Part shown: piece by piece, positions 7,379 to 22,873 of the stretch
Layout of the letters: each line of letters begins with the position of its first letter
How positions within the stretch are numbered: position 1 is the stretch's first letter
Assembly (NCBI RefSeq): GCF_000237865.1
Contig: NC_017459.1
Span: 2,010,001 to 2,042,000 of the forward strand
DNA: 32,000 nt
Direction: 5' to 3'
Origin: Haloquadratum walsbyi C23
Lineage (GTDB): Archaea; Halobacteriota; Halobacteria; Halobacteriales; Haloferacaceae
The notes under the pieces: model-generated
What the model saw: the letters and a program-made list of their open reading frames with translations, nothing else
What the model was told of the DNA's origin: nothing
Databases searched by the model: none
Made by a program: the position numbers and the translations under genes

Positions 7379-7508
7379 TCCTATGCGTAGGATCTCATAT
7401 TGATCACTTCGAATAGTTTCACCGGCGGTGTCGAATGACGCGGGTTCAGCGGTTCCTATCACCGACACAAATAATCACGGTAATAAAAACTTGCACTAAT
7501 CACTATCA
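7377..7508 (+). repeat. interspersed ~130-bp repeat, copy 1 (no ORF)
   Basis: Aligns to the reverse complement of 13155-13287. The 101-nt core has 10 mismatches by manual alignment. Starts at the stop codon of the upstream CDS. Confidence 0.85.
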
Positions 7509-9588: not shown

Positions 9589-9668
9589 TGATCTTCCAGA
9601 AGATTATTAATCCAGATGTACTCTGGACCGGCATACGTTCACCCGCGGAGTGAACTGTGATGCGTATA

Positions 9669-9687
9669 ATCGCTAGTTGTCCACTCT
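9669..9687 (+). repeat. IS left terminal inverted repeat
   Basis: ATCGCTAGTTGTCCACTCT is the exact reverse complement of 11163-11181. Confidence 0.9.
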
Positions 9688-11179
9688 GTCTCAGTGATGC
9701 CGTCGCTGACATATAGTGCCAGATGAAGCGGGTGAATCAGGAAGCTGATTCATCCGCTGCCCGGATGTGGGTGACGTGAACCTACCAAAGCTCAAACGAA
9801 TCCTCACCGATCCGGACGAGTTCATTTCGAACAGCCAGCTGAAATCTCTTAGCATGGAGTTGCTTGAGTTGATACCCATGGAAGGAATCGAGGGCTCCGG
9901 CCTCGATTCCGACCAGATCATGGAAGTCGTTTTACGAGCTGCTGTTGACCAGACATCGGTCAACGGTGTCACAACCAGCACTGAGGACACACCAAACCGG
10001 GAGACAGTGATGGATTGGCTCCACACGCTGGAAAAAGAGACAATGCTTGATGCTGTCAACGACATTCTCGCGCTGGTAGCTATGACGGTTCTCGACCGCG
10101 ACGGGTCGAGAACCATCTGCATCGACTTCATGAACAACCCATTCCACGGTTGTCCAGACGATGAAGACGAATTCCGGCGGATGAGTGCCCGCGACGGCAC
10201 TACAAAGTGTCACCGCTACTGTACAGCGTTTGTTCTTGCACAGGGGAAGCCGCTGACGCTGGCGGTTGAACCGGTTGATGGCAAAGATAGCAAGGCCGAC
10301 GCGGTCGAGCGCGTGCTCGCCCGCGTTGAGACTTATCCGTTCGAGATCGATCAGATTCTCATGGACAGAGACGCCTTCTGTGGCGAGTTAATCGGCGTTC
10401 TCCGTGAGGCAGCACCGCCGGTCTTTCCGGTGAGAACCGGGAAAGAAACCCTCGAAGAGAAGCTCACAACGGGTTCCTCGTACATGACTGAGGAGATAAT
10501 CTGCGAAGGGAAAGAGCACGAACAAACGTATCCACTGGCGGTCAACGTCACGTATCAAAACGGAGATCGCGGGAAGTCAGGGCTCAAACAGACAGGATAC
10601 GCGGCGTACGGTCTGGAAGACCGAACGCCGCGGCAAGTGGCGCAGGTCTACAACCACCGGGCACAGATTGAGAAGAGCTACGAGACATTCCGGAAAGCGC
10701 GTGCTCTGACAACAACACCATCGACGACGATTCGGCTGTTCTACGTGGGCGCTGGGTTCCTGCTGGAGCAGTTGTGGGTTGTGTTGCAGTGGGCAGTGCT
10801 CGCCCGACCACGGCGTGGCGGGCGAGCACTTCCGACCGATTTCACGTTCAACAACGCGTTTCTCCATGGGGTCGAAGAGGTGCTGGACGATGAGCTCGGC
10901 TGGAAAGATGAACACCAGACGAACGGCCAGGGACTACCAGCAGGGCACGAACACGGACTCGGGTAAGCCGCCTCGCTTCGGGCGAAGCGAGGCTGGCGAC
11001 CAGCGACAGCTGTATCTGAATTGCGGCTTCAACACAGAGCTCAGTAGAGACAAGTAGTAAACTCGATATCTGTTTAGGTCACTGAGACAGCTGTTGGCGT
11101 CTTTGTCTTGTTTCGACGTCTTCCGGACGTGAAGTCTTACTTTCGCGGCTGCGGTTATCGGTAGAGTGGACAACTAGCG
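9671..11179 (+). mobile_element. ISH3-family insertion sequence, apparently intact (1509 bp)
   Basis: Perfect terminal inverted repeats CGCTAGTTGTCCACTCT (9671-9687 and 11163-11179, extendable by AT). Identical 5-bp direct repeats ATAAT flank it at 9666-9670 and 11180-11184. One uninterrupted transposase ORF. Visibly GC-richer than its surroundings. Confidence 0.88.
9767..10966 (+). CDS. ISH3-family (IS4-related) DDE transposase
   Basis: 399-aa ORF with a GTG start as listed; the true start is uncertain. The C-terminal region has the YREK-like signature (YNHRAQIEKSYETFRK). The segment TTTPSTTIRLFYVGAGFLLEQLWV...ARPRRGGRALP resembles ISH3-group transposases as I recall them. Confidence 0.85.
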   Translation: MGDVNLPKLKRILTDPDEFISNSQLKSLSMELLELIPMEGIEGSGLDSDQIMEVVLRAAVDQTSVNGVTTSTEDTPNRETVMDWLHTLEKETMLDAVNDILALVAMTVLDRDGSRTICIDFMNNPFHGCPDDEDEFRRMSARDGTTKCHRYCTAFVLAQGKPLTLAVEPVDGKDSKADAVERVLARVETYPFEIDQILMDRDAFCGELIGVLREAAPPVFPVRTGKETLEEKLTTGSSYMTEEIICEGKEHEQTYPLAVNVTYQNGDRGKSGLKQTGYAAYGLEDRTPRQVAQVYNHRAQIEKSYETFRKARALTTTPSTTIRLFYVGAGFLLEQLWVVLQWAVLARPRRGGRALPTDFTFNNAFLHGVEEVLDDELGWKDEHQTNGQGLPAGHEHGLG

Positions 11180-11181
11180 AT
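11163..11181 (-). repeat. IS right terminal inverted repeat
   Basis: AGAGTGGACAACTAGCGAT, the reverse complement of 9669-9687. Confidence 0.9.
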
Positions 11182-11296
11182 AATGAGCTCTATGAATGAG
11201 TAGTAAGTATCTATGAAGTGATATTATCCGATCAATGTTAATTGGTATATTTATTGTTAGATACTTGCCCGAAACACTTTCGTATAACTTCAGGTA

Positions 11297-13154: not shown

Positions 13155-13287
13155 TGATAGTGATTAGTGCAAGTCTTTATCGCCGTGATTATTCATATCG
13201 GTGATGGGAGCCGCTGAACCCGCGTCATTCGACATCGCCGGTGGAACTATTCGAACTAACCAGTATGAGATAATCAACTAGAGGATC
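13155..13287 (-). repeat. interspersed ~130-bp repeat, copy 2 (inverted relative to copy 1)
   Basis: Its reverse complement aligns to 7377-7508 at about 90% over the 101-nt core. Lies in the purM upstream spacer. Confidence 0.85.
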
Positions 13288-21000: not shown

Positions 21001-21284
21001 CACGGGATGTCATCCGTCGAATCCAGCAGATGCGAAAGGAACTGGCGCTTGATGTCGATACCGAAATTCAAACAGCAGTCGATGTTGCCGACGACCGGGT
21101 GGCTGACCTTGTTGCCCAACAACGCGACGTCGTCGCAACAGAGACACGAACAAACGCATTTGTCGATAATATTGATCGCGCAAGTGAGAACGGACAAGCA
21201 CTCATTGAGGAATGGGATGTCGAAGGCGTTACCGTAACAATCGGTGTTGCCCCGCTCAAAGCACAGCTATCTGATCAGTCGTAA
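18099..21284 (+). CDS. ileS: isoleucine--tRNA ligase
   Basis: 1061-aa class-I synthetase with a HIGH-type motif (PPYTSGQMHLGTAWNK), KMSKS (GRKMSKSRGN), an editing-domain segment (WTTTPWTIPAN) and a zinc-knuckle (CPRC...CWRC). Confidence 0.97.
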   Translation: MDEVDDQYTPADVETAIETYWDDTNAYEATKEAHADDPSFFFVDGPPYTSGQMHLGTAWNKTLKDAIIRYKRMTGHHVTDRPGYDMHGLPIEVKVEEELGFETKRDIEEYGMESFIEECKRFAVDNRKAMDEDFQSIGVWMDWDNPYETLSPEYMEAAWWAFQQVDDRGLVERGKRSVSYCPRCQTAIAANEVEYDEITSPSIYVRFPLSNKEGSLVIWTTTPWTIPANTFVAVDKDLTYQAVRAEQGDDSEVLYIAESCVEDVLKQGRYDDYTVVEEYSGDELTGLEYDHPLADQVQTYADFAGAGEVYTAEYVEADRTGLVHSAPGHGQEDFARGQELDLETFVPVDGRGEFTEAAGQYTGTFVRDANDEIIDDLDEEGVLLSSGTHEHRYGHCWRCDTDIIFLATDQWFITVTDIKDELLDNINDSEWYPQWARDNRFRDFVADAPDWNVSRQRYWGIPLPIWESVDDTDTDTGDSSTSDDWIVIGTREELAERADQDVNPAEIDLHRPAVDPLTITENGTRYERVPDVFDVWIDSSVASWGTIDYPGETDAYDELWPADFIVEAHDQTRGWFWSQLGMGTAATGQVPYEEVMMHGFANDENGRKMSKSRGNIVTPEEAIDRAGRDPLRAYLLSHDQQGVDLSFEWNGLGEMQSTLNIFWNVFRFPLPYMDLDGYDPATADLSEGSMNIVDEWVLSRLQSVKATTRAAWEEYEIDTAVNTILEFITGDVSRFYIKAIRERMWADEDSASKRGAYATLSTVLDETIRLLAPIAPYLTEQMYQHLNGSETTVHALSYPSVDPEWQNETLESEMAVLRDVEEAAANARQQGGRKLRWPVPRVIVEAEDDSIADAVESLSGLLADRVNTEAIETVTQFDELIERAQPEMSVIGPEFGADAQRVMDAIEGGSREILTEGVTIDGEQYEITDEMITFDAEPPAYISAADFDGGTVYVDTSLTESIEAEGYARDVIRRIQQMRKELALDVDTEIQTAVDVADDRVADLVAQQRDVVATETRTNAFVDNIDRASENGQALIEEWDVEGVTVTIGVAPLKAQLSDQS

Positions 21285-21308
21285 TCTAAACGAAAAGCAG
21301 CGCGAGTT

Positions 21309-21691
21309 CCCCGCCCCACCGTGGGCGGGGGTGAAGCTCGTACGCTCGGCTGCGTCCCATTTTTTTAATTGTCGGGACGCCCTACTACAATTTGGAACCC
21401 ACGTTATCGGCCTCGCAAAACCCGCGCACCCATTTTGGGGTAAGACGCGGTGCGCCGGGTCTATGTCGCGCCCATGTGAAGGGGCGGACGCCCACGGACA
21501 CGCCCGCCACGGTAGCAACAGACGACCTCTGTTGCGGTGGCACTTTTGGTGTGTTCGGGTGTTACTGGTTCCACGCGAGTCTCGCCAGAGACGAGCGCGG
21601 GCGGAATTAAAATTCGCCACCGGTCGTTTCGCTGGCTTCCCGCCAGAGACCACGGCGAAGCCACGGGCCACCGCGCCCGTGGTACTTCACC
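21309..21691. ncRNA. GC-rich structured-RNA candidate, class unresolved
   Basis: About 63% G+C by hand count over 21301-21700, against AT-rich flanks. Only basic, Cys/Arg/Trp-rich spurious ORFs cover it. At least seven near-perfect GC hairpins plus a possible closing helix (21330-21336 with 21685-21691). Motifs recur (CCACCG x3, CGCCAGAGAC x2). Strand cues conflict. No RNase P CR-I or SRP helix-8 motif found by eye. Confidence 0.5.
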
Positions 21692-21753
21692 TCGATAGTT
21701 ACGTTATTTCATGTTGAATGTCCTGCGTGTTTGGCGACTGAATTTATCTCAGG

Positions 21754-21783
21754 GTTTGAGGTTTGAGGTTTTGATTTTGGGAG
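21754..21783. repeat. degenerate 7-bp tandem repeat (GTTTGAG GTTTGAG GTTTTGA TTTTGGG)
   Basis: Read directly. Lies about 85-110 nt upstream of the dhaK start. Confidence 0.85.
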
Positions 21784-21796
21784 AGAGGCTATCTGG

Positions 21797-21812
21797 GAAA
21801 TAGTGAAATAGT
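21797..21812. repeat. 8-bp tandem duplication (GAAATAGT x2)
   Basis: Read directly. Lies just upstream of the dhaK TATA-like box. Confidence 0.85.
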
Positions 21813-21831
21813 GAGTGATTCCCCGCGAACG

Positions 21832-21839
21832 TTTTTATA
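21832..21839 (+). promoter_or_regulatory. TATA-like box for a probably leaderless dhaK transcript
   Basis: TTTTTATA is centred about 30 nt upstream of ATG 21866, spacing typical of haloarchaeal leaderless mRNAs. ACACT-N7-AGTGT (21839-21855) lies between the box and the start. Confidence 0.5.
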
Positions 21840-21865
21840 CACTGCAATGTAGTGTTGTATACGTT

Positions 21866-22873
21866 ATGCAGAAGCTCATTAATGACCCTGATAATTATGT
21901 CGATGAGATGCTTGATGGGATGGTCTCAGCATATCCTGAAAGATTGACCCGCGTTGATGATACAAAGGTGCTGACACGAGATAGCCTGATTGATGACAAA
22001 GTCGGGATTGTGACCGGTGGAGGAAGTGGTCATGAGCCGACTCATGCAGGATACATTGGCGATGGAATGCTTGATGGAGCAGCAGCCGGGGAAGTGTTTA
22101 CCTCACCAACCGCTGATGAATTGGATACATTAGCACAAGCCTGTGATACAGGTGAGGGTGTTCTCTGCGTTGTCAAGAATTATGAGGGCGATGTGATGAA
22201 TTTCGATACAGCCGCTGAGATGGCTGAAATTGAGGACGTCACCGTCGAACAGATTGTCGTCGATGATGATGTTGCCGTCGAGGACTCACTCTATACAAGT
22301 GGGAGACGAGGAGTGTGTGGAACAATATTCGTCCACAAGGCTGTTGGGGCAAAGGCAGCCGCAGGAGGGTCACTTGAAGAGGTCGCTGCCGTCGGTGAGA
22401 AGGTAATTGATAATGTTGGGACAATGGGTATGGCGCTTACGTCCTGTGTGACCCCGGCAAAAGGTGAGGAGACATTTGATCTTGGTGAGGATGAGATTGA
22501 ACTTGGGATTGGAATTCATGGTGAACCTGGGACAGAGCGAACTGATCAGCTCAGTGCTGAAGAGGTAGGGACACATCTCACAGAGAACGTGCTTGACGAT
22601 CTTGATCCTGCGGCTGGCACAGAGGTTGCGGTGATTGTCAATGGGATGGGCGGGACCCCACTATCGGAGTTATTCATTGTGAACAATGCCGTCCAGTCGA
22701 CGCTTGAAGCGCATGAGCTTGATACGTGGGAAACGATGGTTGGCGATTATATGACATCACTCGACATGCGTGGGTGCTCTGTTACCGTTTGCACGGTTGA
22801 TGATGAACTCAAAGAGTTGTTTGCTGCGCCCGCTGACACACCAGCACTGACACGGGCTGGCGATGATGAGTGA
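21866..22873 (+). CDS. dhaK: dihydroxyacetone kinase, DhaK subunit
   Basis: DhaK motifs are present (KLINDP.N.VDEMLDG, GIVTGGGSGHEPTHAGYIG.GMLD.AA.GEVF, VKNYEGDVMNF, ELGIGIHGEPG). The listed ORF begins upstream at 21815; ATG 21866 (MQKLIND) is preferred. Confidence 0.93.
   Translation: MQKLINDPDNYVDEMLDGMVSAYPERLTRVDDTKVLTRDSLIDDKVGIVTGGGSGHEPTHAGYIGDGMLDGAAAGEVFTSPTADELDTLAQACDTGEGVLCVVKNYEGDVMNFDTAAEMAEIEDVTVEQIVVDDDVAVEDSLYTSGRRGVCGTIFVHKAVGAKAAAGGSLEEVAAVGEKVIDNVGTMGMALTSCVTPAKGEETFDLGEDEIELGIGIHGEPGTERTDQLSAEEVGTHLTENVLDDLDPAAGTEVAVIVNGMGGTPLSELFIVNNAVQSTLEAHELDTWETMVGDYMTSLDMRGCSVTVCTVDDELKELFAAPADTPALTRAGDDE

Follow-up and report, generated by a model that had tools for sequence, protein, structure and literature searches.

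The GC-rich island between ileS and dhaK of Haloquadratum walsbyi C23: a copy of the gene-less IS200/IS605 element HqIRS44 with a probable omega-RNA-like core

Palindrome-associated transposable elements (PATEs) are related to IS605 and have neither inverted repeats, nor a target duplication, nor a transposase; 177 of them were counted in Haloquadratum walsbyi C23 and 194 in strain HBSQ001 (PMC3119063). One kind, HqIRS44, was classed as a 'homogeneous PATE' by Dyall-Smith et al. (2011, PLoS One 6:e20968, Tables S5, S8 and S9; PMC3119063), with four copies in C23 and three in HBSQ001 and with two and one strain-specific insertions, respectively. Here we follow up an island rich in G+C and dense in hairpins that lies between ileS and dhaK in a 32-kb stretch of the C23 genome (the window, whose own numbering is used throughout), and which an earlier note had read as an unassigned structured RNA in the class of RNase P RNA or 7S RNA. 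It is virtually certain that this island is a PATE, namely a copy of HqIRS44, a gene-less element of the IS200/IS605 family of insertion sequences (IS). The element, at this exact position, was already published in 2011 and is not new.

In the IS608/ISDra2 paradigm a Y1 (HUH) transposase, TnpA, recognises the hairpins at the ends of the element on the single-stranded top strand. Guide RNAs of TnpB were reportedly described in 2021, by Karvelis and by Altae-Tran. In Halobacterium, sot2652 is a sense overlapping transcript (sotRNA) that comes from the 3' end of a tnpB gene of the IS1341 type (PMC4615843), and RNA of this type is now understood as the omega-RNA of TnpB, the guide of the TnpB nuclease (PMC12558985; PMC10055086). 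The guide portion in this architecture is the flank that lies 3' of the right end (RE) of the element (PMC10055086), and PATEs 'often encode omega-RNAs' that TnpB uses in trans (Meers et al. 2023, PMC10055086). Both the transcription of PATEs (2015) and the TnpB guide RNAs that they can carry (2023) are therefore in the literature, and the 2011 description of HqIRS44, which predates omega-RNA, gives the core of the element no role.

Other gene-less relatives are more distant. VNG_R0052 of Halobacterium salinarum NRC-1, in which a left end (LE) and a RE are fused, also consists of gene-less IS200/IS605 ends in a haloarchaeon and is transcribed (PMC4615843), but it is another element, whose end hairpin carries a tetraloop. 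The PATE-like elements of Geobacillus stearothermophilus and the REPINs (Meers et al. 2023; Bertels & Rainey) are likewise non-autonomous and mobilised in trans by Y1 enzymes, but these are bacterial and unrelated in sequence to HqIRS44.

Position, boundaries and hairpins of the element

With an offset of 2,010,000, window positions 21285-21690 become C23 positions 2031285-2031690, which is the interval that row 478 of Table S5 lists as an INSERT_REPEAT of 406 bp, intergenic, assigned to HqIRS44 and represented in HBSQ001 by 5 bp (PMC3119063). The insert itself occupies 21290-21690 on the plus strand and measures 401 nt, or 406 nt if the TCTAA target is included. In Table S9 the termini of HqIRS44 (405-406 bp) read TCTAA ACGAAAAGCAGCGCGAGTTCCCCGCCCCACCGTGGGCGGGGGTGAA... 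on the 5' side and ...GCGAAGCCACGGGCCACCGCGCCCGTGGTACTTCAC on the 3' side, with TCTAA as the targeting sequence (PMC3119063), and the window agrees with both. Length, termini and genome coordinates are thus those of the published element, and we found no sequence difference. The offset is supported by two nearby rows of Table S5, those of ISHwa12 and HqIRS55, which also fit the window, and the flanking IleS and DhaK are identical to the C23 proteins CCC40798 and CCC40799. The features of the locus are as follows.

21285-21289, plus strand: TCTAA target, resembling a target-adjacent motif (TAM); host DNA outside the insert, abutting the ileS stop codon (21282-21284)
21290-21690, plus strand: HqIRS44 insert, 401 nt, non-autonomous IS200/IS605 element, delimited by the comparison of occupied and empty sites, by the limits of homology and by Tables S5 and S9
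21309-21330, plus strand: subterminal LE hairpin, CCCCGCCC, loop CACCGT, GGGCGGGG, a perfect 8-bp stem
21352-21380, plus strand: 7-bp hairpin, stem confirmed, with a 15-nt A/T loop, ATTTTTTTAATTGTC, that contains a run of seven T (T7)
21403-21690, plus strand: putative omega-RNA-like (sotRNA-like) scaffold, from weak matches to RF02657
21661-21682, plus strand: subterminal RE hairpin, CCACGGGC, loop CACCGC, GCCCGTGG, a perfect 8-bp stem
21683-21690, plus strand: RE tail, TACTTCAC, 8 nt, whose final TTCAC is the right cleavage site, from the ends of the copies and Table S9
21691-21710, plus strand: predicted guide portion of an omega-RNA, CTCGATAGTTACGTTATTTC, as expected from the TnpB/omega-RNA architecture

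The raw observations on which the structured-RNA reading had been built hold up well. G+C is 62.8% over 21301-21700, where a hand count had given about 63%, and 63.4% over 21309-21691, compared with 48.1% for the whole window. This contrast can be attributed to the composition of the donor lineage, as the element is common to haloarchaea of high G+C. Both open reading frames (ORFs) named earlier (21244-21717 plus, 21267-21671 minus) are present and encode peptides rich in Arg, Cys, Trp and His, unlike the acidic neighbour proteins. Seven stem pairings had been proposed and all were found in place, five of them perfect (21309-21316 with 21323-21330, 21352-21358 with 21374-21380, 21515-21522 with 21528-21535, 21661-21668 with 21675-21682, and GGTGAAG 21330-21336 with CTTCACC 21685-21691) and two imperfect, as had been described (21421-21430 with 21449-21459 and 21483-21490 with 21501-21508). 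The motif CCACCG does occur three times (21316, 21617 and 21668), and CGCCAGAGAC twice (21583 and 21641). What has to be revised is the meaning of some of these parts. The two hairpins with CACCGY loops are real, and they are the LE and RE hairpins of a transposon; GGTGAAG and CTTCACC, proposed to close an RNA domain, do pair perfectly and involve conserved sequences next to those same hairpins. The limits are also sharper than the 21309-21691 first given, with the target at 21285-21289 and the insert at 21290-21690.

That the island is a discrete insertion can be seen in natural populations. Ten Haloquadratum contigs were gathered by their identical DhaK, and a metagenome scan for both junction types added three more, all of them empty and too few for allele frequencies. 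The ileS-dhaK spacer is 187 nt in nine of the ten DhaK-matched contigs and long in the tenth, and altogether the locus is empty in 12 of 13 natural contigs and occupied in one (L010; L numbers are our labels for the loci compared). In alignment A2 the empty site reads ...TCGTAATCTAG joined directly to CTCGATAGTTACG... (also ...TCTAGCTCGATAG). The occupied site reads ...TCGTAATCTAA, ending in TCTAA, followed by the insert from ACGAAAAG to TACTTCAC (ending GTACTTCAC) and then by CTCGATAG. These junctions are precise, without target duplication, and the ends (ACGAAAAG... compared with ...TACTTCAC) are not terminal inverted repeats. Subterminal hairpins with 8-bp stems and 6-nt loops are found at both ends, as in a PATE, and the presence/absence polymorphism together with the multiple copies attests to mobility. 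In the same spacer, a GGTTTGA tandem repeat at 21753-21766 is polymorphic as well, with two copies in the window and L005 and three in L004, L008, L009, L010 and L012 (alignment A2).

Relatives across the haloarchaea and mobilisation in trans

The same element is found in other haloarchaea, where its boundaries can be read independently of the ileS-dhaK locus. A blastn search against plasmids returned full-length copies, about 81% identical, on plasmids of Natronococcus occultus and Natrinema gelatinilyticum. When the three copies are aligned with their flanks, homology starts with TCTAAACG (21285) and stops with ...GTACTTCAC (21690), and the DNA outside is unrelated. The exact 22-mer of the RE hairpin was found in 57 DNA stretches, nearly all haloarchaeal, in a search of one genome per species; no H. 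walsbyi was among the 57, though the representative genome of that species may not be C23. Further full-length copies, 78-91% identical, come from Haloarcula, Salinarchaeum, Halococcoides, Halovenus and Halobiforma, from a Halorutilales plasmid and from a metagenome-assembled genome (MAG) of an uncultured member of the Halobacteriales, so that, with Natronococcus and Natrinema included, copies occur in at least eight haloarchaeal genera besides Haloquadratum. Among the 16 copies listed, all in unrelated flanks, TCTAA precedes 15 (CCTAA stands before the other), GTACTTCAC closes 15 (L032 has ...TTCAT instead), and 14 keep both boundaries. Truncated or chimeric PATEs have the last ~150 nt in common with HqIRS44.

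A number of side observations concern these relatives. One Haloarcula sp. MAG, DAL-9Gt_49m_66C1R, holds six identical copies at six sites (L033, L034, L042, L046, L054 and L059), which indicates a recent burst and hence an active transposase in that lineage. Some foreign copies carry small nested insertions with inverted repeats of their own: in L029 (5961-6010) the LE hairpin has a 50-nt insert placed exactly in its loop, inserts are likewise found in the LE loop of L032 and L035, and a 54-nt insert follows the first core hairpin in L002 and L032 (alignment columns 222-275). They recall the small mobile repeat (SMR) elements aimed at PATE palindromes (Dyall-Smith et al., PMC3119063). Two contigs, L039 from a MAG labelled Marinobacter and L050 labelled Mollicutes, contain a sot2652-type 3' part and RE hairpin (...GGGAACTACAAAAGCCACGGGCCACCGCGCCCGTGG.CGTTTAC), and these seem likelier to be mis-binned haloarchaeal contigs than cases of cross-domain transfer. 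A match in Umezawaea (L067), an actinomycete, seems to be a palindrome rich in G+C that arose by chance. In L016, from an uncultured Halobacteriales MAG, a tRNA gene (2418-2492) lies ~500 nt from the PATE copy.

The ends connect HqIRS44 to elements that do code for proteins. Table S9 links these ends with ISNph6 and ISNph8 of Natronomonas (PMC3119063). Over the 57 nt at 21285-21341, identity is 98% with the LE of a complete IS on a plasmid of Natronorubrum aibiense (L001 1466-1522). This IS carries a divergent tnpA and a gene for an 'RNA-guided endonuclease TnpB', and its RE hairpin matches too, in the stem as well as in the CACCGC loop. Like HqIRS44, ISNph6 and ISNph8 (Natronomonas pharaonis) and the L001 element have a TCTAA target and neither inverted repeats nor target duplication. 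LE and RE are common to elements with tnpA and tnpB (L001, L025 and L055) and to elements with tnpB only (L015, L064 and L062), and the RE hairpin directly follows tnpB in L001, L015, L025 and L055. The likeness is confined to LE (~60 nt) and RE (~40-60 nt), as is also the case for tnpB-only IS of ~1.4 kb in Natrialba and Natrinema and for tnpA+tnpB elements in Haloprofundus and Halalkalicoccus. There are differences as well. L001 and L025 end in GTTTAC, whereas HqIRS44 ends in GTACTTCAC; the coding relatives carry tnpA and/or tnpB, whereas HqIRS44 carries neither, and its core is not alignable to their tnpB coding region.

HqIRS44 is thus a PATE in the sense of an IS200/IS605 (IS1341/TnpB-type) IS derivative reduced to its two ends and a non-coding core. 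The ORFs within its 401 nt encode basic, low-complexity peptides, and tblastn of the core peptide finds other PATE copies only. That the core might descend from the C-terminus of TnpB found no protein-level support in tblastn with the longest in-frame core peptide. No tnpB was found in the window among the larger ORFs, which were those covered. The search for a parent of the core, by blastn against plasmids and tblastn of the core frame, returned only PATE copies or truncated derivatives.

The layout of the ends fits that of IS608: the target lies 5' of LE, the foot of the LE hairpin is 19 nt from the left cleavage point, and the RE hairpin is followed by 8 nt. By analogy, a Y1 TnpA supplied in trans would bind the plus ('top') strand, in single-stranded form, at both hairpins, and the element would leave as a single-stranded circle to be pasted 3' of another TCTAA ('peel-and-paste'). 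The core at 21403-21690 may then give rise to a plus-strand omega-RNA-like transcript that runs past RE into the flank, a step that we infer from weak homology. Such a transcript might load a TnpB encoded elsewhere, and this TnpB would cut the element-free site, in which TCTAA is followed by CTCGATAG... (TCTAA-CTCGATAGTTACGTTA), favouring retention of the element. We consider it very likely that this joint reading (a copy of HqIRS44, mobilisation by TnpA in trans and an omega-RNA-like core), taken whole, is right.

The omega-RNA-like core and competing readings

The omega-RNA-like character of the core on the plus strand is probable. Two plus-strand matches to RF02657 (sot2652) were found, one at 21403-21584 (23.3 bits, E 0.0064, full model) and one at 21631-21688 (19 bits). 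They are arranged from LE to RE, end with the RE hairpin and adjoin the boundary at 21690. This orientation and position recur in other PATE copies, at 22-25 bits, and the same model reaches 103-170 bits at the 3' end of tnpB and RE of three tnpA+tnpB elements that share the ends of HqIRS44. In order, the scaffold consists of 5' stem-loops, ~130 extra nt (about 21500-21630), a short hairpin and the RE hairpin. By our own reading of the alignment against L001, the ~100 nt at 21403-21500 retain the two 5' stem-loops of sot2652, and in the second of these the pairs are reversed, from GGGCG/CGCCC to CGCCC/GGGCG. The 5' motif of HqIRS44, UUAUCGGCCUCGCAAAACCC, compared with AUUACCGGACUCACAAAACCC of sot2652, was judged to be the same. 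The last 58 nt form a short hairpin and the RE hairpin, as in sot2652, where the terminal hairpin also has a 6-nt loop; in VNG_sot2652 this loop closes a 10-bp stem (PMC4615843), and the RE hairpin of HqIRS44 is of the same form. Strand and position relative to RE are those of the sotRNAs and omega-RNAs, but unlike the sotRNAs the core overlaps no tnpB ORF. From these comparisons, the core has the look of a lengthened sot2652 omega-RNA. The suggestion of a divergent known RNA was thus partly right, in that the core resembles a known RNA on the plus strand, but the score stays below the threshold of the family.

The variation among 11 copies is also in keeping with a conserved core. Variable columns make up 63% of the linker at 21342-21402 and 15-28% of the omega-like domain, which is the best conserved part, and they are rarer among predicted paired positions (21%) than among unpaired ones (45%; Fisher p = 5e-7). 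The A/T-loop hairpin at 21352-21380 belongs to the most variable segment (63% of columns), yet a TTTTTAA-like loop is present in 10 of the 11 copies, being deleted in the Natrinema copy, and the loop centre lies 33 nt upstream of the start of the sot2652 model. This loop could act as an archaeal TATA-like box for a plus-strand RNA and/or as an oligo-T stop for ileS read-through; no classical BRE-TATA (B recognition element and TATA box) was found upstream of sotRNAs (Gomes-Filho et al. 2015, PMC4615843). The earlier note had counted the T7 run as a cue for the minus strand, a role that it does not have to play, as either of these two uses is equally compatible with it. The other minus-strand cues fare no better, since the consensus energies of the 11 copies are near equal and the numbers of G.U and A.C are similar on both strands. 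The A.C mismatch in the stem at 21483-21508, from which a minus-strand transcript had been argued, is found in the two Haloquadratum copies (window and L010) and is a standard pair in the nine others (columns 325/373). Folding is better than in dinucleotide shuffles on both strands (z of -3.9 plus and -2.8 minus), so folding alone cannot choose between them.

A number of results weigh against the joint reading, for the most part against its RNA component. The sot2652 score of 23.3 bits (cmscan of 21150-21900) is well below the gathering score of 61, and ~130 nt of the core have no counterpart in sot2652. Two-sided compensatory change is seen in only one of 115 predicted pairs, the PATE copies being too similar to one another. 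The consensus fold of the 11 copies has an energy of -166.4 kcal/mol on the plus strand and -169.5 kcal/mol on the minus strand, which gives no preference for plus. The contrast between paired and unpaired columns is partly circular, as RNAalifold favours conserved columns when it assigns pairs. Among 73 fetched loci, blastn and nhmmer found no tnpB-bearing parent with the same core. All 15 tnpA and 83 of 100 tnpB genes of C23 are disrupted (PMC3119063), which raises the question of where the transposase comes from and whether this host has a usable TnpB to offer; a functional partnership between HqIRS44 and TnpB in present-day C23 appears unlikely to us. Lastly, the target is TCTAA in both occupied alleles (window and L010) and TCTAG in all 12 empty alleles, and plain insertion into the commonest allele fails to explain this.

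The last point deserves some attention. Insertion of an IS200/IS605 element leaves the target unaltered, and it follows that either a TCTAA haplotype is now seen only in the occupied state, or the empty alleles have gained a change that inactivates the target. The split may be plain linkage. An improbable reading is that the TCTAG alleles are the footprint, in a natural population, of omega-RNA-guided cutting by TnpB or of target immunity of TnpA. If this were true, empty sites with an intact TCTAA and CTCGATAG... would be cut again or re-invaded, and only TAM-mutant empty alleles would be left. The sample of two occupied and 12 empty alleles is too small to decide between the readings. Next to the target, a single-nucleotide polymorphism at 21278, 11 nt upstream of 21289, exchanges CAG and CAA in the last ileS codons and is mostly linked to the element. 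The empty allele of L071 combines TCTAG with CAG, a variant that elsewhere occurs only together with the element.

The alternative that survives best accepts HqIRS44 as a PATE but takes it to be inert as RNA, its structure reflecting only the single-stranded DNA ends needed by TnpA together with recent descent, and its core a decaying relic. Much of what was just listed would suit it: the likeness to sot2652 is weak, there is one compensatory pair among the copies, folding favours neither strand, and most tnpB genes of C23 are pseudogenes (PMC3119063). The copies, moreover, are 80-99% identical, and their conservation may just mirror a recent spread. On the other hand, TnpA needs the ends only, and 'terminal-only' PATEs of 52 bp do exist (PMC3119063), whereas here ~290 nt of core have been kept almost unbroken in at least nine genera, and the linker at 21342-21402 varies freely. 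The core also starts with the motif and the stem-loops of an RNA family linked to tnpB, and one Halobacterium PATE is transcribed (PMC4615843). On balance we regard an inert element as possible, though doubtful.

The element could also have been co-opted as a cis-regulator, with the T7 run ending ileS transcripts and/or an altered promoter region for dhaKLM, which lies 175 nt downstream. It stands directly after the ileS stop codon, its T7 hairpin is on the strand of ileS, and oligo-T tracts terminate archaeal transcription. Most natural genomes, however, have identical flanking genes and do without the element, which makes any such effect incidental, and no part of the element is less conserved than its T-rich segment. 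Regulation of this kind is very improbable.

Much the same comparison leaves almost no chance for a free-standing structured RNA gene of the host, be it a divergent RNase P RNA, an RNA of the signal recognition particle (SRP/7S) or a novel RNA. High G+C, stable hairpins, the want of a plausible ORF and the two negative z values would all be expected of such a gene. Yet 12 of 13 natural Haloquadratum contigs lack the island, as does HBSQ001, which is not how a housekeeping RNA behaves, and other genera carry copies in unrelated contexts with sharp transposon boundaries. The cmscan that had been proposed as a check gives no Rfam family at threshold in the window. In 21150-21900, where matches up to E <= 10 were admitted, neither RNase P nor SRP came up; apart from the weak sot2652 matches, the scan returned just one family, a CRISPR-repeat model on the RE hairpin. 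On the plus strand of 21201-21800 the CR-I motif of RNase P, GGAAAGTCC, does not occur, the minus strand not having been searched for it. The RNase P/7S interpretation is therefore not supported.

A classical MITE (a miniature transposable element of the inverted-repeat kind), moved by a DDE transposase and marked by terminal inverted repeats as well as a target-site duplication, would share the short, non-coding, multi-copy and GC-rich character of the island, but no duplication is seen at the junctions, ACGAAAAG... and ...TACTTCAC do not form an inverted-repeat pair, and the ends match IS200/IS605 elements, so that we give this alternative a negligible probability. The suggestion of a GC-rich MITE or foreign remnant was nevertheless close in part: the element is mobile, horizontally spread and non-coding, but of the IS200/IS605 PATE type. 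As a PATE has neither terminal inverted repeats nor duplications, looking for these two features, as had been advised for recognising a MITE, would wrongly reject the element.

Other mobile elements of the window and significance

Two further mobile elements of the window are also in the published catalogue. A unit of ~1.5 kb at 9666-11184 is bounded by 22-nt inverted repeats that are 95% complementary, and corresponds to the C23-specific insertion of ISHwa12 at C23 2019671-2021179 (Table S5 row 472, PMC3119063); the GC-rich ORF of 399 amino acids within it (9767-10966) has no Pfam match. A repeat of ~117 nt occurs twice, at 7392-7508 and 13155-13271, in inverted orientation and with 88% identity, and the second copy is the C23-specific 'small mobile repeat' HqIRS55 at C23 2023157-2023266 (Table S5 row 474, PMC3119063).

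As a discovery, the significance of this copy of HqIRS44 is small. It does illustrate that GC-rich, hairpin-dense intergenic islands in the AT-rich genome of Haloquadratum are predictable false positives of scans for novel structured RNAs. Given the roughly 180-190 PATEs of H. walsbyi, such islands should be masked, or compared with the HqIRS/ISHwa catalogue, before structured RNAs are called. For the family, the wide spread of HqIRS44 over many haloarchaeal genera, at 80-91% identity, and its conserved core of ~290 nt make it a convenient natural case in which to study the use of TnpB in trans by gene-less elements.

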